Position numbers and translations under genes: made by a program. Under the pieces are notes generated by a model, which was not told where the DNA came from, made no database searches, and saw nothing but the letters and a program-made list of their open reading frames with translations. This document shows, one piece after another, positions 1-6,295 of a DNA stretch of 6,295 nucleotides. This stretch comes from a virus (Duplodnaviria > Heunggongvirae > Uroviricota > Caudoviricetes): positions 1 to 6,295 of IMG/VR virus record IMGVR_UViG_3300029249_000134; one strand, written 5' to 3'. Numbering within the stretch: the stretch's first letter is position 1; each line of letters starts with the position of its first letter.

Positions 1-1685
1 ACCAGTTGCTGCGCCTCTGTCTGCGAAAAAATCTCCGGATCATCAGGAAAACGGATGGCATACGACGTGGCTTCATCCGCAGGCGTGGGATCGGCTTTCA
101 TACGGGCATAGAGAATTTCTTTTGCGGTGTCCGTTCCCACTTCACACAGATACACGCCCCGCTGATTGCGGGTTTTTGGCATGGTGATCACCGGCTTGCC
201 ATAGACAGATGCGCCTTTTACCGGCAGCACCCGGAAAACACCGTGTTTTTTTGATCTCTGATAAACAATTTCACCATCGATCCCCCCGGTGTCCCAGCAG
301 ACACGGGAAATAGTCATTTCGGTGCCATCCGCATGGCGGTATTTTTTGTTGATCGCCGCATCCACACGTAACAGCGTCTCTTCCTCATCAGGACGCCCCA
401 TAATGATGATTTTATCCACCAGAAAGGCTTCCTCTCCCAGAGCCCATCCCCAGACATACATCTCAAAACGGTTTCGCTGCGAGTCAATGCCCGCCGTCAG
501 ATAAACCACCCGGGCAGGCACCGCCGCCGTGTAACGCACCACCTTATCCATCAGTACCTGGTGATCGAGTTTTTCGCCCACGGCCTCTTCCCAGGTCTCG
601 CCCAGCGTGGTGTTCACAAAGGTTTTCAGGCCGTTGGGATCTTTCAGTGCATCCAGCCAGTCATAGACAATCTGTACCCAGGTGGTGAACGGACTGTACG
701 CCGTCCAGATATGGAACGTGATGGAGCGCGGCGGCGGAATTTCATCACCCCGGGCGCTGAAAAACGTCAGACCGTCACGGGTCCACATGCCCGTGTTTTC
801 ACAGATCCACCGCCCGTTACTCTGGTCAAGCTCAGACTGATGGATCACACAGCCATGATGCTCACAAAGGTAGAAAACACTTTCTGGCTTATTCTTCTCC
901 CACTTAAGACCGAAAGGCGAGGCATCATCGCCAAATTTCAGATACTGCTCCTCCCCACAGTGCGGACAGGGCACATAAAAACGCATGAAGTGTGCCGACT
1001 CGTTAGCGGCTTTTTCGATCTGGCAGGTGCCTTTGATTTTAGGCGTCGAGCCGCGAATGGATTTTGGCCACACCGACCCCTCAATACGCTTATCCCCCAG
1101 CAGGGTTGGCGAGCCCTCTTTTTCGACATCCGGCTCGAACGAGGAAAGTTCGTCATAGCAGACCACGTCCACGGATTTTTCACGGTAGTTTTTGGCGGCA
1201 GCGCCGCCCAGGCACCAGAAACCGACGCCCGATGAAAAGCGTTTCAGCGTGAGAGTATTGTCACGATGTTTACGACCCAGCCATGGGGAAAGGTCTTTCA
1301 GGCATGGCACGTTCCGAATCGTCGCCTCCACGTGAGACTTCATAAAATCTTCAGCGGCAGAATCCGTGGGCTGAAAAAGCAGACTGTTTCGGGATTTATG
1401 CTCAATAAAATACCCGACCACCCCCAGCAACATCTTTGTATAGCCAACACGGGCAGATTTAATCAGGTTAACCGTGCGAACCTGGTCGTTACCCATACAG
1501 TTCATAATGGCGATCTGGAATGGCAGCGTTTTCCATTCTCCCTCACCATATGAAGATTCTTTAGGCAGATAATAATTTTGATCAGCCCATTCAACTGCCG
1601 TCATTGGTACAACCCTGACCAGAGGCTGCAGCGCAACCGAAACGGCAGCCATCATATTATTCAGTTGTTGCTCTGATATATTCAT
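1..1685 (-). CDS. A: Terminase large subunit (lambda gpA-like), partial; C-terminal ~80 residues lie beyond the window start
   Basis: Manual minus-strand translation from ATG at 1685 gives MNISEQQLNNMMAAVSVALQPLVRVVPMTAVEWADQNYYLPKESSYGEGEWKTLPFQIAIMN..., then ...KRFSSGVGFWCLGGAAAKNYREKSVDVVCYDELSSFEPD... and ...YVPCPHCGEEQYLKFGD..., ending at the window edge with ...AIRFPDDPEIFSQTEAQQL. Frame is open across all 1685 nt and matches remembered lambda gpA (MNIS start, AVEWAD, C-terminal FPNNPDIFDLTEAQQL). Start overlaps the Nu1-like gene by 29 nt, as in lambda. Not in the ORF track because it has no in-window stop. Confidence 0.93.
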   Translation of the reverse strand, partial: MNISEQQLNNMMAAVSVALQPLVRVVPMTAVEWADQNYYLPKESSYGEGEWKTLPFQIAIMNCMGNDQVRTVNLIKSARVGYTKMLLGVVGYFIEHKSRNSLLFQPTDSAAEDFMKSHVEATIRNVPCLKDLSPWLGRKHRDNTLTLKRFSSGVGFWCLGGAAAKNYREKSVDVVCYDELSSFEPDVEKEGSPTLLGDKRIEGSVWPKSIRGSTPKIKGTCQIEKAANESAHFMRFYVPCPHCGEEQYLKFGDDASPFGLKWEKNKPESVFYLCEHHGCVIHQSELDQSNGRWICENTGMWTRDGLTFFSARGDEIPPPRSITFHIWTAYSPFTTWVQIVYDWLDALKDPNGLKTFVNTTLGETWEEAVGEKLDHQVLMDKVVRYTAAVPARVVYLTAGIDSQRNRFEMYVWGWALGEEAFLVDKIIIMGRPDEEETLLRVDAAINKKYRHADGTEMTISRVCWDTGGIDGEIVYQRSKKHGVFRVLPVKGASVYGKPVITMPKTRNQRGVYLCEVGTDTAKEILYARMKADPTPADEATSYAIRFPDDPEIFSQTEAQQL

Positions 1686-2166
1686 CGAGTAAATCCGGTA
1701 ATTTATCCCCTGCCCGCGCACACTGATTTGCCCCCTTCGCAATAAGGGTTTTCAGATGGTCAAGATGGCGCGGTGTTAAATCAGGAAACTGTCGCTGCAT
1801 GGATAAAGGGATGGAATCAAGCGTACTGGATAACGCCATTGCCAGCTTACTGAGGGCAAAAATACAGAACCCGGTGTCAATAAGTTTTCCTTTTGACACC
1901 TCATTTTTTAACTGCTGTGTAACAGCCTGTTCTGCTGTCAGTTCCCATCTGGCAATAAGCAATTTCTCCTCATAGTCGTCTTCGCTATCGCCATCAGGCA
2001 CATCGTTTTTACTTCTCCTCAGATACGATATGTAAAAATCGCGCCAGGCATCCAGATCCAGTTGCCCTCGCTTATTCGATATCGGGGCACCCGGCAATTT
2101 CTGCAATCTGCGAAGCTGGCGATCGGTCAGACTTAAATGCCTGGCAACTTCAGTCTGCGTAGCCAC
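1657..2166 (-). CDS. nu1: Terminase small subunit (Nu1-like); N-terminal DNA-binding domain diverged from lambda, C-terminal half lambda-like
   Basis: 169-aa ORF from the track. C-terminal half (…DTGFCIFALSKLAMALSSTLDSIPLSMQRQFPDLTPRHLDHLK…LPDLLDEYI) aligns by eye with lambda Nu1 (…ETAFCTFVLSRIAGEIASILDGLPLSVQRRFPELENRHVDFLK…IPGLLSEYI). N-terminus (TQTEVARHLSLTDRQLRRLQ) is HTH-like but unlike lambda. GTG start at 2166 with a TGA in frame immediately upstream and GAGG 6 nt upstream. Confidence 0.88.
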   Translation of the reverse strand: MATQTEVARHLSLTDRQLRRLQKLPGAPISNKRGQLDLDAWRDFYISYLRRSKNDVPDGDSEDDYEEKLLIARWELTAEQAVTQQLKNEVSKGKLIDTGFCIFALSKLAMALSSTLDSIPLSMQRQFPDLTPRHLDHLKTLIAKGANQCARAGDKLPDLLDEYIRATTE

Positions 2167-2213
2167 TCCTCACCTCGCAAAAACTCTCACCTCACAATCA
2201 CAACAAAACCGGT

Positions 2214-2225
2214 CATGTCCGGTTT
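2214..2225 (-). repeat. cosB R1-like element (putative small-terminase binding site), motif AAACCGGACATG on the phage strand; sits inside a 7-6-7 palindrome 2206-2225
   Basis: Plus strand catgtccggttt; one of three copies of the same ~11-12 bp motif between the Nu1-like start and cosN. Function inferred by analogy to lambda R1. Confidence 0.55.
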
Positions 2226-2243
2226 ACATGTCTGTTTTTTGTT

Positions 2244-2255
2244 CATGTCCGGTTC
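2244..2255 (-). repeat. cosB R2-like element, same orientation as the R1-like copy
   Basis: Plus strand catgtccggttc, 30 bp from the R1-like copy. Confidence 0.55.
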
Positions 2256-2300
2256 ACAGAAGACCTGTTTTTATATTTTTCATATAGTTAACTTGAAGAG

Positions 2301-2312
2301 AAACCGGACATG
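2301..2312 (+). repeat. cosB R3-like element, inverted relative to R1/R2-like copies and closest to cosN
   Basis: Plus strand aaaccggacatg. Separated from the R2-like copy by an A/T-tract spacer (2256-2300, tttttatatttttcatatag) where lambda has the IHF site I1. The inverted R3 / spacer / R2 / R1 layout mirrors lambda cosB. Confidence 0.55.
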
Positions 2313-2349
2313 GATCCCGGAAAATTTTCATAAATAGCGAAAACCCGCG

Positions 2350-2361
2350 AGGTCGCCGCCC
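2350..2361. other. cosN cohesive-end site (12-nt overhang GGGCGGCGACCT on the minus strand), within a 45-bp block (2317-2361) identical to the lambda left end
   Basis: Reverse complement of 2317-2361 is GGGCGGCGACCTCGCGGGTTTTCGCTATTTATGAAAATTTTCCGG, matching the lambda genome start from memory. The adjacent 2362-2370 (reverse complement ccggttacg) resembles the lambda right-end terminus. Lies ~185 bp upstream of the Nu1-like start, as in lambda. Confidence 0.85.
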
Positions 2362-2396
2362 CGTAACCGGTCGGATCGCCGGAAAGGACCCACGAA

Positions 2397-2413
2397 ATGA
2401 TAATGATTATCAT
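2397..2413. promoter_or_regulatory. Perfect 8-1-8 palindrome ATGATAATgATTATCAT (Fur-box-like operator candidate) abutting a TATATA -10-like hexamer (2415-2420)
   Basis: Read directly. 2399-2413 GATAATGATTATCAT matches 14 of the first 15 positions of the Fur consensus GATAATGATAATCATTATC. Lies ~36 bp beyond cosN and ~150 bp upstream of the plus-strand ORF at 2568. Confidence 0.3.
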
Positions 2414-2567
2414 CTATATAAGGTTTATCACAACATGTGTGTACGCCATCAAACCACGAGAAATAATCAATTATGACGCAGGTATCGTATTAATTGATCT
2501 GCGTCAAATTAACGTAAAAGCAACTTCAGATAATACAAATCAGCAACACTGAATATGGGGAAACATT

Positions 2568-2753
2568 ATGTCATCAAAGAACAGAACCCGCAGAACAACA
2601 ACCCGCAACATCCGATTTCCAAACCAGATGATTGAACAAATTAACATCGCTCTTGATCTGAAAGGTTCAGGAAACTTTTCAGCGTGGGTTATTGAAGCCT
2701 GCAGAAGAAGGCTGTCAACAGAGAGTTCGGGTATGAATTACATAATTAAGTAA
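2568..2753 (+). CDS. Small (61 aa) basic protein, ribbon-helix-helix-like putative DNA-binding protein
   Basis: ATG at 2568 preceded by GGGGAAA with 7-nt spacing. Sequence MSSKNRTRRTTTRNIRFPNQMIEQINIALDLKGSGNFSAWVIEACRRRL has a basic N-terminal tail, a short strand (RNIRFP) and two helices, consistent with an Arc/MetJ/CopG-type fold. Opposite strand to the Nu1-like gene. Positionally reminiscent of ylcI/ynfO next to nohD/nohA in E. coli K-12 cryptic prophages, but the sequence match is not verified. Confidence 0.6.
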   Translation: MSSKNRTRRTTTRNIRFPNQMIEQINIALDLKGSGNFSAWVIEACRRRLSTESSGMNYIIK

Positions 2754-3382
2754 CATGGTGTTCACAGAACACGCAGTTACCGGACACATCAGTTTTCCAT
2801 TCGCTCCCCGGCAGTACAGGCTTCCCCTCTGACGGGATAGCCTGAAAAAATAACACAGAAAATTATTTGTTATAATTAATATAACTTACTCAAAAAAAAG
2901 CGACGAGAAAATCAGCATCAACGAACAATAAGCGCCAATACGTGATAACAAATGGCAGCCATATTTATCTGCAGTATAAGCAATGGACAGGATAACCACA
3001 CCAGAAACCGTCAGCATAAAATCCATTTGAACTTCCCCGGACAAAATCGACTCATCTAAAGATTTACAGCTCTTTTTATTATCAATATGTTAAAAGTAAA
3101 ATAAACAGATGTTCAATAACACGAATACAAAAACGTGCTGAAATTCAATGAATCCATTTCTGTGTCATCAATTAATAGTGATAAACATCCGGCTTCTTCC
3201 ACCATCGCACCGGACATGCGACTATGAGGGGACAACGCCGCGCTCCGTTAACGCGGTAAACCCCGGTGTGTATCGTTTTTGATTATCCCCGCACACTCGC
3301 ACAGAGGAGTCTCCCGGTCGGGCTGCGGTCTCTGTTAATGCGGGAATACGGCGACAATACCGCGCATGGATAATAAGGTCGC

Positions 3383-3607
3383 TCAACACACTGGCTGTAA
3401 TGCAGCGGATACCATGCGGCATTTAGCGGTATTCATCGTACACTCAACGGTTAGCTCTTCATTCGTGGCATTCACCTGAAAGGTCCGGGAGTGTAATTGC
3501 ATACATTTACCACTGAACGAACCTTCAACAAGAACACGACCACGCTGCAAAATACGGAACAGAATTGTTCCCTGAAGAGGCTTTACGGTTACCTGTAATT
3601 TCTTCAT
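3383..3607 (-). CDS. Hypothetical 74-aa protein with four Cys, directly downstream of Rz/Rz1, at the position where lambda has bor on the opposite strand
   Basis: ATG at 3607 with GGAGA 4 nt upstream, 23 bp after the Rz stop. Product MKKLQVTVKPLQGTILFRILQRGRVLVEGSFSGKCMQLHSRTFQVNATNEELTVECTMNTAKCRMVSAALQPVC has no signal peptide or TM segment and is not Bor-like. The track's longer version starts at a TTG (3625). Confidence 0.5.
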   Translation of the reverse strand: MKKLQVTVKPLQGTILFRILQRGRVLVEGSFSGKCMQLHSRTFQVNATNEELTVECTMNTAKCRMVSAALQPVC

Positions 3608-3630
3608 GCATTCTCCGGATAACAAAAATA

Positions 3631-4104
3631 CTAGTTAATACACTGAGTGCGGATATATTCCTGCGCCCCTCCCACCTGCTTCTGCATTGTCATCAACCGT
3701 TCTCTGAGGATGAAATAATCCCGTTCAGCGGTGTCTGCCAGTCGGGGGCCGGTTGCATTATCCACGCCGGAGGTGGTGGGGGCTTCACGCACGGAGCCTG
3801 GACAGGTGGCGTTGATCCGCAGGCGCTTACGACCAGCGGCAACGTCAGCGCGAAGAGTTTCATTTTCAGCTCTCGCATCGGCTAATTCCCTCGAGTATTT
3901 TGCATCGAGCGCAGCAACATCGCGCTGGCGCACCTGCATATCAGTAATGGTTGCGTTCGCCAGCTTCAGTTCACTGGCTTTGTTATCGCGCTGCGCTTTG
4001 TAGGTAATCGCGTTATCACGGTAATGGTCTGTTGCCATCCACAGCGCACCACAGGCCACCAGCAGAATAACGATAAACGCGGAAAGCATTCGGTTTATGT
4101 TCAC
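3631..4104 (-). CDS. Rz: i-spanin Rz
   Basis: Product contains [69 protein letters not shown]…[23 protein letters not shown], near-identical in blocks to remembered lambda Rz, with an N-terminal TM segment. GTG start at 4104 overlaps the upstream ORF stop (GTGA); alternative ATG at 4089. Confidence 0.9.
3693..3878 (-). CDS. Rz1: o-spanin Rz1, lipoprotein embedded in the +1 frame of Rz
   Basis: Product [61 protein letters not shown] has a lipobox (VVSA-C) and the proline-rich core shared with lambda Rz1 ([27 protein letters not shown]). Lies entirely within Rz in another frame. Confidence 0.88.
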
Positions 4105-4232
4105 CCCAGCAACCCCGACGAAGACAACATCATCCAGGCCATGGAAAGAAAAAGAGCAACCAGCATTAGTGAAAATGAAATGCCGACAATTACACAGAGG
4201 ATCTTCGCCAGCGTTATGAGTTTGTCTGACAT
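4101..4232 (-). CDS. Candidate small single-pass membrane peptide (43 aa) between endolysin and Rz; function unknown
   Basis: ATG at 4232 preceded by AGGGAGGA with 6-nt spacer. Product [43 protein letters not shown] is almost entirely one hydrophobic helix. Its TGA overlaps the Rz GTG start (GTGA), suggesting translational coupling. No homolog recognised. Confidence 0.45.
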
Positions 4233-4246
4233 GCTTAATCCTCCCT

Positions 4247-4429
4247 TCACGATTTCAACGCAATGACCAGTTTTGCCAGCCCATACAGCATCGGGGACAC
4301 AGCAACACCGACCGCCACCCACTTAATGGCAAAAGCCAGTGCTCTGCTGATGTCATCAGTTACAGGCGCTTTCAGTTCAAGGCCGTTTTTCATGGTCAAC
4401 CTCAACAGAATTCGTTTATACTTCGCCAT
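4247..4429 (-). CDS. Candidate small membrane protein (60 aa, amphipathic N-terminus and C-terminal TM) between endolysin and Rz; function unknown
   Basis: ATG at 4429 preceded by AAGGGAGAAC. Product [60 protein letters not shown]. Stop at 4247 is 14 bp before the next ORF's ATG, with that ORF's SD in between. The track's longer version starts at a GTG (4462) inside the hairpin flank; the ATG with SD is preferred. Confidence 0.45.
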
Positions 4430-4462
4430 GTTCTCCCTTGCCTTACTCAAGGTCAGAAACAC

Positions 4463-4502
4463 AAAACCCCGCTTGGTGCCAACAAACGGGGTTTTTACTT
4501 TT
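4463..4502. terminator. Candidate bidirectional intrinsic terminator: perfect 9-bp stem AAAACCCCG / CGGGGTTTT with 15-nt loop and U-rich tails on both strands
   Basis: Stem arms 4463-4471 and 4487-4495 are perfectly complementary (5 GC pairs). Plus strand continues TTTTTACTTTTATT; minus strand continues TTTTGTGTTTCT. Lies 91 bp after the endolysin stop and just upstream of the 60-aa ORF. Confidence 0.45.
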
Positions 4503-4585
4503 ATTCACTTACGTTTCGCCAGTTCGCAGGATTTCGTGTTATCCGCCCGCGTGGCCATGCCTTATTTTTCAGCAAAATATTCTGC

Positions 4586-5119
4586 TTATCTGTCGATACC
4601 CCAGCACGCCAGCGCGCTCTCCTGGTCACGACGGGATACCTGACCGTAACAGTTGTTTGAACGAATACGGCAGTCTCTGCCACCGTCCTTAATCCACCAG
4701 CGAATCGCCTCACAGGCACCTTTTCGATCGCCTGCATTAATTCGTTTATAAAACGTCGACGGGAAGCACTTACCGGGGCCAATGTTGTACGGACAGAATG
4801 ACGCGATCCCCGCTTTCTGGGGTTCGGTCAGCGGCACTTTGATGTTTTTCTCCACCCATGCCAGCGCCTTGTCACGTTCGATGGCATTAACCCGGTCGCA
4901 TTTTTCCTTTGACAGCTTCATGCCAGGAATAACAGGCTTACCATCCACCAGAATGGCACCACGGCAGATGGTCCAGATCCCCGCACCATCACGGTATGCC
5001 ATGGTGTGGTTACCTTCCTTTTCATCCAGAAACTGGTCGAGGATTTCAGGCGCAGAAGCACCTGCACCAATCAGCGCCAGAACGGCAGCCGACAGGCCGT
5101 ATTTTATTTTTTCGTTCAT
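4586..5119 (-). CDS. R: SAR endolysin (T4-lysozyme-type muramidase with N-terminal signal-anchor-release domain), phage 21 R-like
   Basis: 177-aa product has a weakly hydrophobic Gly/Ala-rich N-terminal segment (YGLSAAVLALIGAGASAP) followed by the catalytic triad spacing E-x8-D-x5-T (EGNHTMAYRDGAGIWT), as in T4 lysozyme and R21. No SD upstream of the ATG at 5119; a 6-bp hairpin (5121-5143) abuts the start. Confidence 0.92.
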   Translation of the reverse strand: MNEKIKYGLSAAVLALIGAGASAPEILDQFLDEKEGNHTMAYRDGAGIWTICRGAILVDGKPVIPGMKLSKEKCDRVNAIERDKALAWVEKNIKVPLTEPQKAGIASFCPYNIGPGKCFPSTFYKRINAGDRKGACEAIRWWIKDGGRDCRIRSNNCYGQVSRRDQESALACWGIDR

Positions 5120-5236
5120 GGGGATTTATCGATTTCTAATCCCTTGATATGTTAGGTATATAATCCAACACTCATGGTCGCTCTCATAAACATATCCCTT
5201 GAGACGCAGCAGATTACAACAAATGAAGCCATATAA

Positions 5237-5551
5237 ATGAACAGTAAAGAAAGTTTGCGCAGAAGATTTTTACAACTAATGACAGAAAACGTTAAATCAG
5301 AGTTACTTCTTCTGATGGCAGATAATAACGAAGCAACAAGCAGCATTCTTGCAGACCCTTACGGTAAGATCTCACATAAAACGCTGGATATTATTACCAC
5401 AACATTAACACCGCTGATGCTTCAACGGCTGAAACATAATATCAACGCATGGGTTAATGAAGAATTAAGTCCTCCCTGCTTATGGGATTCTCGTTACGCA
5501 TGTCAGCAAAAAATGCGAATTTTCAACTTACTATCACCAAAGCTCAGGTAG
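5237..5551 (+). CDS. Hypothetical 104-aa protein encoded opposite to the lysis genes inside an AT-rich insert between holin and endolysin (candidate moron)
   Basis: Track ORF MNSKESLRRRFLQLMTENVKSELLLLMADNNEATSSILADPYGKISHKTLDIITTTLTPLMLQRLKHNINAWVNEELSPPCLWDSRYACQQKMRIFNLLSPKLR. Protein-like composition but weak RBS. Consensus TATAAT at 5159-5164 upstream; 8-bp hairpin 5557-5586 right after the stop. Position and size resemble ydfR between essQ and rrrQ in K-12 Qin, but that is from memory and unverified. Confidence 0.45.
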   Translation: MNSKESLRRRFLQLMTENVKSELLLLMADNNEATSSILADPYGKISHKTLDIITTTLTPLMLQRLKHNINAWVNEELSPPCLWDSRYACQQKMRIFNLLSPKLR

Positions 5552-5556
5552 CCATA

Positions 5557-5586
5557 AAATCCTGCCCTTCATGGCATACAGGATTT
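5557..5586. terminator. Hairpin (8-bp stem AAATCCTG / CAGGATTT, 14-nt loop) immediately 3' of the 5237-5551 ORF; weak terminator candidate
   Basis: Arms 5557-5564 and 5579-5586 are perfectly complementary; tails are only weakly U-rich on either strand. Confidence 0.25.
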
Positions 5587-5806
5587 CAATGGAATCACAA
5601 TGACCAACTCTTGCACAGCTGTATCCCTGACTCCCCGACAACTCAGATTTTCAGTATCTGCTGCTATCTAAAGAGAAAGCGCACAAATGCAAGGGTCTTT
5701 CATCACGTCCTGTTATTGATTGCCTGTGACCTTTTCTCACCTCATGGAACGTTTTTTCAGTTAGAAATATTCATTTTACAACCAGTTCGTATTGTTTATT
5801 CATCGA

Positions 5807-6022
5807 CTACTCTCCCCGCGCCACCTTACGACGGTCCTCTCTGATTTTGAAATACAGGTTAGTCAGATACGTCAGCAGGCCAAACAGCAGACTCCCCAGC
5901 ACACCTATCGCCACCCACTGGGACGGAGAGACTTTGTCCAGCAGCTGCAGTAACCAGTATCCCGTCCCCACCGCTGACGTGGTGTATGACACACCCGTTG
6001 TGATTTTTTCCATCTGGTACAT
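5807..6022 (-). CDS. S: Class II holin / pinholin, phage 21 S-like, with dual-start motif (Met1 and Met4)
   Basis: 71-aa product [71 protein letters not shown] has two TM segments and a basic C-terminus, closely resembling remembered S21. GGGAGA lies 6 nt upstream of the ATG at 6022; second ATG at 6013. Pinholins characteristically pair with SAR endolysins. Confidence 0.9.
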
Positions 6023-6097
6023 ACCCCGTCTCCCGCAATCCGGAAGCTCACAACAACAGGAGGGGCATCAGCTCACACCGACAGCCCCTGCGTATGG

Positions 6098-6295
6098 TTA
6101 CATCATCATTTCGCCGCCAGGCTGAGGCTCACTGCTACCGTCAGGCTGAGACACAACGCCATCTGAAACAGCACTGTCACCCGCGCCGTCTTCAGGCTCA
6201 GGAGCAGCCGGTCCCCCCAGCAGCTCATCCAGAATGGCATCCACTTCAGCATCAAGACGCGCCTCAAGATTCTGGCGGAGTTGCTGTTTCAGTGC
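6098..6295 (-). CDS. 3' end of an upstream gene (N-terminus beyond window); C-terminal 65 residues are acidic, Pro/Gly/Ser-rich and end in MMM
   Basis: Manual minus-strand translation from the window edge is open for 65 codons: ALKQQLRQNLEARLDAEVDAILDELLGGPAAPEPEDGAGDSAVSDGVVSQPDGSSEPQPGGEMMM then TAA (6100-6098). Codon usage is enterobacterial-like. Identity unknown; does not look like a Q antiterminator C-terminus. Confidence 0.5.
   Translation of the reverse strand, partial: ALKQQLRQNLEARLDAEVDAILDELLGGPAAPEPEDGAGDSAVSDGVVSQPDGSSEPQPGGEMMM

Follow-up and report, generated by a model that had tools for sequence, protein, structure and literature searches.

Analysis of a 6,295-nt viral sequence (IMG/VR record IMGVR_UViG_3300029249_000134, positions 1 to 6,295; hereafter the window) indicates that an antisense open reading frame (ORF) lying between the holin and endolysin genes of a prophage lysis cassette is a genuine gene under selection as a protein. 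The sequence covers the late region of a lambdoid, Shiga toxin (Stx)-phage-like prophage of Escherichia coli, with its late genes on the minus strand, and the gene in question, designated gene B, encodes 104 residues on the plus strand within a 687-bp gap (5120-5806) that separates the holin from endolysin R, located downstream of it in the late operon. The gap is not a single insert. Rather, intact gene B is accompanied by a decayed second gene, A, and the whole seems to be the residue of a two-gene accessory module in the lysis cassette. Taken as a whole, we consider it probable that gene B is an independently transcribed protein gene, likely expressed in the lysogen. The layout recurs in Shiga toxin phages, and gene B is an accessory gene rather than a new kind of system.

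Gene B and the remains of gene A

The holin–endolysin gap has a G+C content of 39.2% (38-39%), whereas its flanks are richer, at 53.2% (endolysin) and 54.2% (holin). Because only 4 nt separate the S stop from the R start in phage 933W, the block counts as an insertion relative to the classical adjacent S–R cassette, as had been proposed in the original prediction, which was made from the letters of the window alone. The positions given there for the ORF, a TATAAT element and two inverted repeats were each confirmed. Three of the features stand above chance. One is the ORF, which has homologs and is under purifying selection; another is the low GC of the block; the third is the TATAAT, located in the sole 10-nt invariant run of its region. 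The genes and gene remnants at issue are as follows.

4586-5119, minus strand: endolysin R, signal-arrest-release (SAR) type, 177 residues (PF00959, E 1.1e-23; RefSeq relatives annotate lysozyme)
5237-5551, plus strand: gene B, 104 residues, predicted cytoplasmic and all-alpha, antisense to the late operon (PHROG 1853, homologs, substitution ratios, AlphaFold2)
5558-5730, minus strand: remnant of the gene A C-domain (PHROG 1085 family), interrupted by in-frame stops and missing a large internal stretch
5771-5803, minus strand: putative gene A relic start, a 10-codon ORF (MNKQYELVVK, then stop) that begins 3 nt past the holin stop
5807-6022, minus strand: holin, S21 type (class II; PF04971, E 1.5e-32)

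Gene B matches PHROG 1853, a family without known function, at E 3.5e-47, with residues 1-102 covering positions 57-158 of the 159 in the profile. Its full-length homologs at 64-79% identity have the same start and length, the 104-residue versions in Stx2-converting phage 86 and Stx2_12E129 are 53% identical, and more distant homologs reach down to ~34% identity. The ratio of nonsynonymous to synonymous substitution rates (dN/dS; Nei-Gojobori, 13 pairs with finite dS) ranges from 0.14 to 0.39, with synonymous sites near saturation (dS 0.5 to above 2) and most changes at third positions. The prospect that the ORF might lack homologs or coding-type conservation was thus not borne out. The AlphaFold2 model is confident and contains five helices, with a predicted local distance difference test score (pLDDT) of 87 and a predicted template modeling score (pTM) of 0.78. 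The family is small: searching 1.84 billion representative proteins with a profile returned 21 relatives only, and the species-representative genomes searched for gene B contained none.

RefSeq annotates gene B as a 90-residue hypothetical protein (5279-5551; WP_000138558.1; ECs_1097 in the Sakai prophage Sp4), a form that is 14 codons short. We favor the start at 5237 because the N-terminal 14 residues are conserved and the Stx2 phages annotate 104 residues. Gene B is present in 674 of 5,426 complete E. coli genomes (about 12%), usually in one copy per genome; 622 of these carriers hold it at ≥99% identity, and many belong to named serotypes of E. coli that produce Shiga toxin (STEC) (O157:H7, O111, O121, O103). 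ECs_1097, annotated too short, is carried mostly by STEC genomes. In Sakai Sp4 it adjoins pchA, a regulator of the LEE (locus of enterocyte effacement).

The 104-residue product had been suggested to be a DUF1327/YdfR protein (PF07041). This assignment was rejected: gene B has no Pfam match and BLASTP yields no alignment to K-12 YdfR, which itself scores 1.1e-53 against PF07041. Gene B has no Pfam match at E 0.01, nor do 14 members of its family at E 1, and the defense and toxin–antitoxin hidden Markov models (HMMs) of PADLOC-DB match neither B nor A at E 0.1. A plus-strand 120-residue ORF at 5482-5844 was likewise discarded as spurious, as it has no family match and overlaps both the remnant and the holin.

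DUF1327 points instead to the origin of the neighboring remnant. The segment 5552-5806 is a pseudogene of gene A, a late gene co-oriented with the holin and endolysin that combines a YdfR/DUF1327 N-terminus with a C-domain. In the loci with longer inserts, intact A encodes 213-268 residues on the late strand, and the homology of the window to these loci ends at 5553 and returns at 5799. Within the segment, tblastn aligns residues 143-186 of Stx2_12E129 A with 5730..5599 (36% identity, with stops; E 6e-6), and the terminal ...LKGRI motif of gene A matches 5581..5558 (...YAMKGRI in the window). The relic ORF shares seven of 10 residues with the K-12 YdfR N-terminus (MTQDYELVVK) and nine of 12 with that of Stx2-86 gp05 (MKKKYELVVKGI), a segment too short for an HMM score in either comparison, and it occupies the syntenic slot that R holds in 933W. 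The possibility that the insert is simply a degraded remnant fails for 5237-5551, where gene B is intact; in 5552-5806, A has decayed.

Expression signals and the favored model

Because gene B opposes the late operon, it would need a promoter of its own. The candidate signals around it are listed below.

5120-5158, either strand: conserved stretch separating the R start from the B leader; its minus strand is the R leader, and it contains GGGATT/AATCCC
5157-5166, plus strand: TATATAATCC, containing the −10-like TATAAT (5159-5164), 72 nt before the B start, with no good −35
5223-5240, plus strand: five-codon upstream ORF (uORF; MKPYK, then stop), the TGA of which overlaps the B start codon (AUGA)
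5557-5586, either strand: 8-bp inverted repeat AAATCCTG/CAGGATTT with a 14-nt loop, lineage-specific

In an alignment of nine distinct upstream regions, in which 34% of columns are invariant, TATATAATCC is the longest invariant run, at 10 nt compared with 4 nt for the next. The window-type TATAAT leader is found essentially only before gene B, and TATATAATCC is absent from leaders of the Stx2-phage-86 type. A second candidate promoter on the same strand, 11 bp upstream of the TATAAT, consists of TTTATC (5125-5130) and a TG-extended TATGTT (5148-5153) separated by a 17-nt spacer. Its position weight matrix score of 9.2 is reached or exceeded by just six placements in the whole window on both strands, and the pair lies within a 45-nt block that even the Stx2 phages retain. 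Indeed, 5120-5158 is kept in all six diverged loci, including Stx2 phages in which B is 53% identical. These comparisons support TATATAATCC and the TG-extended TATGTT as a candidate promoter for gene B. The uORF is retained as M[KR]x[YQ]K-stop in eight of nine distinct relatives and as an in-frame fusion in the ninth. Its second codon also forms a weak Shine-Dalgarno (SD)-like GAAG, and its conservation may reflect translational coupling or simply the SD-like GAG/GAAG.

The inverted repeat downstream of gene B is predicted to fold at −12.6 kcal/mol on the plus strand (z −2.5; three of 200 shuffles fold as well) and at −15.8 kcal/mol on the minus strand (z −3.1), and it falls in the former C-terminal codons of gene A. 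As an intrinsic terminator it was rejected: the loop is 14 nt, there is no U-tract, a terminator scan called no terminator-like site at 5557-5586, and the repeat is unconserved in relatives. Because B and A abut or overlap at their 3′ ends in intact relatives, these leave no space for a terminator, which is not part of the module design. Of the promoter–gene–terminator layout of a moron that had been proposed, the gene stands, given its homologs and selection, and so does a conserved −10, but the terminator does not.

"Moron" is a fair label, because gene B is a real accessory gene that has its own orientation and keeps a conserved −10. It is variably present between genes that adjoin each other in relatives (933W; O55:H7; Stx2_95) and differs in base composition from its flanks (38-39% versus 53-54% GC), although it has no factor-independent terminator of its own at 5557-5586. 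The classical morons bor and lom of lambda and bor of 933W are prophage-expressed and dispensable for lytic growth. Like gene B, they are small accessory genes against or within the late region with atypical composition, and they have their own promoters; 933W bor is antisense and lies just after Rz. However, bor is located at the end of the lysis cassette rather than between S and R and encodes an outer-membrane lipoprotein, whereas B is predicted to be cytoplasmic, lacks a terminator, and is predicted to be expressed. By analogy with bor, we favor expression of gene B in the lysogen or constitutively. If it is expressed in the lysogen, B would join bor and lom as a candidate for lysogenic conversion.

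In the favored model, for which we infer promoter activity, expression timing, read-through, and any effect on the lysis genes, A once lay directly behind the holin, and B would converge on A and diverge from the endolysin. Gene B would be transcribed from its own σ70-type promoter in the 117-bp R–B spacer, with the TATAAT at 5159-5164 as −10, possibly aided by TATGTT at 5148-5153, and a start near 5171, independently of the Q-dependent late promoter. The product would be a small soluble five-helix protein acting on some target. Because there is no intrinsic terminator, the B transcript would probably extend, as antisense RNA, through the A stump and on into the 3′ end of the holin. Late mRNA would traverse the block as a spacer of ~690 nt, untranslated save for the 10-codon relic ORF, which alone would be driven by an SD embedded in the holin, while the endolysin would initiate independently on its SD-less AU-rich leader.

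Several observations weigh against this model. No function for gene B emerged from Pfam, NCBIfam, PADLOC, or PDB sequence or fold searches, and a literature search returned nothing on ECs1097 or its neighbors. A consensus promoter scan of 4900-6100 found no −35/−10 pair, and the −35 of the TATAAT is poor. Gene B is frameshifted or truncated in several relatives (P0011-P0013, L075, L076), and selection on it is thus not universal. With a near-identical allele in 622 of 674 carriers, its abundance appears to mirror clonal STEC spread as much as selection. Finally, the structured hairpin leader that precedes B in Stx-phage and more distant relatives (see last section) has no copy in the window, nhmmer detecting no homology, and gene descent only would link the window B to that class of cassettes.

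A different reading of the same arrangement is that the RNA made from the B promoter, not the protein, is what matters. In the lysogen, read-through into holin and late mRNA would silence leaky lysis genes or exclude superinfecting relatives, and the ORF would be secondary. In our survey of roughly 70 gene B loci, B opposes the flanking late genes wherever such genes are detected, with nothing terminator-like between B and the convergent late gene. There is also a precedent in STnc6030, an antisense RNA of >700 nt in the late genes of the Salmonella prophage BTP1, which is expressed in lysogeny and excludes BTP1 superinfection (PMC7067206). The two resemble each other as antisense transcripts within prophage late genes, but STnc6030 is noncoding and its exclusion was shown experimentally, whereas B is protein-coding and known here from sequence. 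The dN/dS values of 0.14-0.39 at saturated dS show that the protein is selected, which would leave an antisense role as an addition at most. Moreover, the late mRNA opposite B is a noncoding spacer, which gives pairing there no evident target short of read-through into the holin. We therefore regard an RNA-centered role as unlikely and retain the reading of B as a protein gene.

Cassette comparison and the endolysin leader

Comparison with related phages and prophages distinguished the following gene orders, in which S is the holin.

S-R: 933W
S-ydfR-R: K-12 Qin
S-A-R: Stx2_95; O55:H7 prophages
S-A-B-R: phage 86 (gp05/gp06), 12E129, L005, L006, L070-L076
S-deltaA-B-R: the window, Sakai Sp4
A-B-S-R, with three different holin families: L016-L020, L078

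The closest known counterparts are Stx2 phage 86 (gp05/gp06; NC_008464) and Stx2_12E129, which have the same order of holin, A, antisense 104-residue B, and endolysin, a B of equal length that is 53% identical, and the same 45-nt block at the R start. They differ from the window in that A is intact (268 or 213 residues) and B is preceded by a good SD and a hairpin leader, not the TATAAT; their A and B are annotated merely as hypothetical or YdfR family. The K-12 Qin cassette essQ-ydfR-rrrQ also has an extra gene between an S21-type holin and the endolysin, and the relic ORF of the window resembles the YdfR start and is located in the same place. In Qin, however, ydfR is co-oriented and translationally coupled through an overlapping stop and start, belongs to DUF1327, and is accompanied by no antisense gene. 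In Sakai Sp4 (L013 22131-29827), IS629 and ISEc8 flank the pchA-Rz-R-B-holin segment, which is flipped with respect to the Q and terminase genes, such that the lysis genes oppose late transcription and gene B runs along with it. In Stx and Stx-like phages, cassettes of the S21/R21 type can depart from the tight S–R unit of the textbook.

Across the survey, wherever flanking late genes were detected, the A C-domain or its remnant is located at the 3′ end of gene B, and in intact relatives the 3′ ends of the two genes abut or overlap. A and B are a conserved convergent pair. Gene B itself is optional. Phage Stx2_95 has S-A-R without it, and in O55:H7 DEC5B exactly 409 bp are absent, corresponding to gene B and its leader, where the junction coincides with a GATT(T)ATC microhomology and B's final 10 nt remain; this absence looks like a deletion. 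Conversely, gene B stays intact beside a frameshifted A (L004), and also in stumps of decayed prophages with a truncated endolysin (L007-L010). We considered whether these stumps show gene B to be mobile in non-phage islands and rejected the idea, because 114-426 bp of the endolysin 5′ end remain, marking them as decayed prophages.

The pairing could also be taken functionally, with B as an antagonist of, or immunity to, a late-acting A, either a lysis-associated protein or an RNase E/RNA-binding factor of the YdfR type, so that the B of the window would be a leftover whose partner is dead. B is found only beside A or an A remnant, down to ~34% identity and in three cassette contexts, and the abutting or overlapping 3′ ends would suit such a pair. 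K-12 YdfR co-purifies with the N-terminal half of RNase E and with RNA (PMC13232886), which offers the only functional lead, by analogy, for the A side. Against a functional pair, A is found in cassettes that lack B, and several independent lineages have an intact B but no A; the part of the partner that is conserved is the A C-domain, not DUF1327; and PADLOC yielded nothing. In addition, the slot between the YdfR-like gene and R holds other, unrelated cargo in L102, L114, and L178, and adjacency may thus reflect an insertion hotspot. We judge such a partnership decidedly unlikely and continue with B as an accessory gene in its own right.

The endolysin ATG has no SD, and its 5′ leader is AU-rich. 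Alignment of the holin 3′ end of the window with those of 933W, Qin, Stx2-86, and 12E129 revealed that the last holin codons hold an SD-like GGGGAGAG (5810-5817 in the window) that serves the next gene in line, which is R in 933W, ydfR in Qin, and A in phage 86; in the window it serves only the relic ORF. Because the same SD-less 23 nt precede R in O55:H7 prophages without gene B, the leader is not caused by the insert and is a property of the S-A-R cassette type. R can be displaced by about 0.7 kb and have its own SD-less leader for translation, with the holin-embedded SD left on a relic peptide. The GGGATT/AATCCC repeat (5121-5143) is predicted to form a 6-bp hairpin at −6.7 kcal/mol, with a z of −1.2 (25 of 200 shuffles are equal), and the same region is unstructured in relatives (z about 0). 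Compared with relatives, the window lacks 10 bp, ATATTTATCA, directly upstream of the endolysin start (5120-5130); this is one copy of a short direct repeat, and its loss puts GGGATT/AATCCC 1 nt from the AUG. A regulatory hairpin at the R start was rejected, being neither significant against shuffles nor conserved. Of the earlier suggestion that the endolysin start lacks an SD and is decoupled from the holin or hairpin-regulated, the absent SD and the decoupling stand, as GGGGAGAG serves the relic ORF, and the hairpin does not. Also rejected was coupling into R from a minus-strand uORF: the 64-residue ORF ends 32 nt before R, has no homologs, and is unconserved in 12E129.

These data bear on a last proposal, that the block is chiefly a cis-regulatory spacer tuning endolysin translation through the R-start hairpin and the lost holin coupling: R does lack an SD, a repeat arm stops 1 nt before its AUG, and the holin-embedded SD now serves the relic ORF, but a hairpin no better than shuffled sequence and unstructured in relatives, the same 23-nt SD-less leader where B is absent, and the lack of conservation of minus-strand ORFs ending near the R start make it very improbable.

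Hairpin-leader cassettes and neighboring genes

The B genes of the Stx2-86 type and more distant ones lack the TATAAT. They carry instead a conserved leader in which CAGCCCGYCAGTG-loop-CACTGGCG is followed by GGATGGCTGATTACCTC and an SD. The motif can be written CAGCCCGYCAGTG-loop-CACTGGCG ... GGATGGCTGA ... SD, with about 47-51 nt from hairpin to start codon. The hairpin lies before B at the following positions.

L011: 4391-4417
L012: 3895-3919
L017: 1333-1361
L020: 3925-3951
L078: 3422-3448

The whole leader spans about 150 nt and comprises a promoter-like region, the CAGCCCGYCAGTG..CACTGGCG hairpin, a second helix, AGAGG/CCUCU, and the SD. The second helix is supported by covariation, with compensatory changes at five of six pairs (15 cells) and in none of 500 shuffles, and the leader 5′ CAGCC could pair with the loop GGCUG. 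Rfam gave no credible match to the window, nor any family for the hairpin leader of the relatives, which looks like an undescribed cassette or RNA motif. At least 28 mutually unrelated families of small cargo ORFs, none of known function, stand behind this leader on at least 120 viral contigs (L079-L198), and among the matches listed the cargo is antisense to flanking late genes, namely endolysin, holins, gpL-like proteins, a 195-205-residue family, and tape-measure-sized proteins. The leader is also present, unannotated, in 167 of the 5,426 E. coli genomes; credible genome matches are all from Enterobacteriaceae, and others look like chance. The pattern favors a moron-type reading of gene B, through descent only. 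By eye, 27 of 46 positions of 5120-5158 resemble the promoter region of the hairpin leader, a likeness that is only suggestive.

Tentatively, B could be one cargo of a widespread and apparently undescribed class of antisense accessory cassettes in enterobacterial temperate phages, consisting of small, fast-evolving genes oriented opposite to the late operon, frequently located at the lysis cassette, and with a conserved structured leader in front of many of them. B might then act in the lysogen, in exclusion of or defense against related phages or as a brake on the lysis genes, and in the window the leader would have been swapped for a TATAAT promoter and the partner lost. We see this broader reading as possible and on balance doubtful. 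The hairpin leader, with its many uncharacterized cargo genes, would provide a handle for the systematic discovery of such genes.

Further late genes of the window are as follows.

3631-4104, minus strand: Rz (also matches PF03245)
3693-3878, minus strand: Rz1
1657-2166, minus strand: Nu1-type small terminase (relatives annotated terminase small subunit)

A small YlcI/YnfO (DUF3950) gene (2568-2753, plus strand) is likewise oriented opposite to the late operon; it lies between the lysis genes and the small terminase, and neither leader type, TATAAT or hairpin, is present before it. The region upstream of the holin, 6023-6295, gave no match in an Rfam search, and the window departs from most relatives beyond 6016. 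Prophage small RNAs, PasA, PasC, and PasD, adjoin such holin–lysozyme operons, according to a 2026 preprint. Between the endolysin and Rz, two minus-strand ORFs (4101-4322 and 4247-4462) match phrog_4906 and phrog_1115, PHROGs without a function, and relatives have small hypothetical proteins annotated in the same interval, making these further uncharacterized passengers of the lysis cassette.
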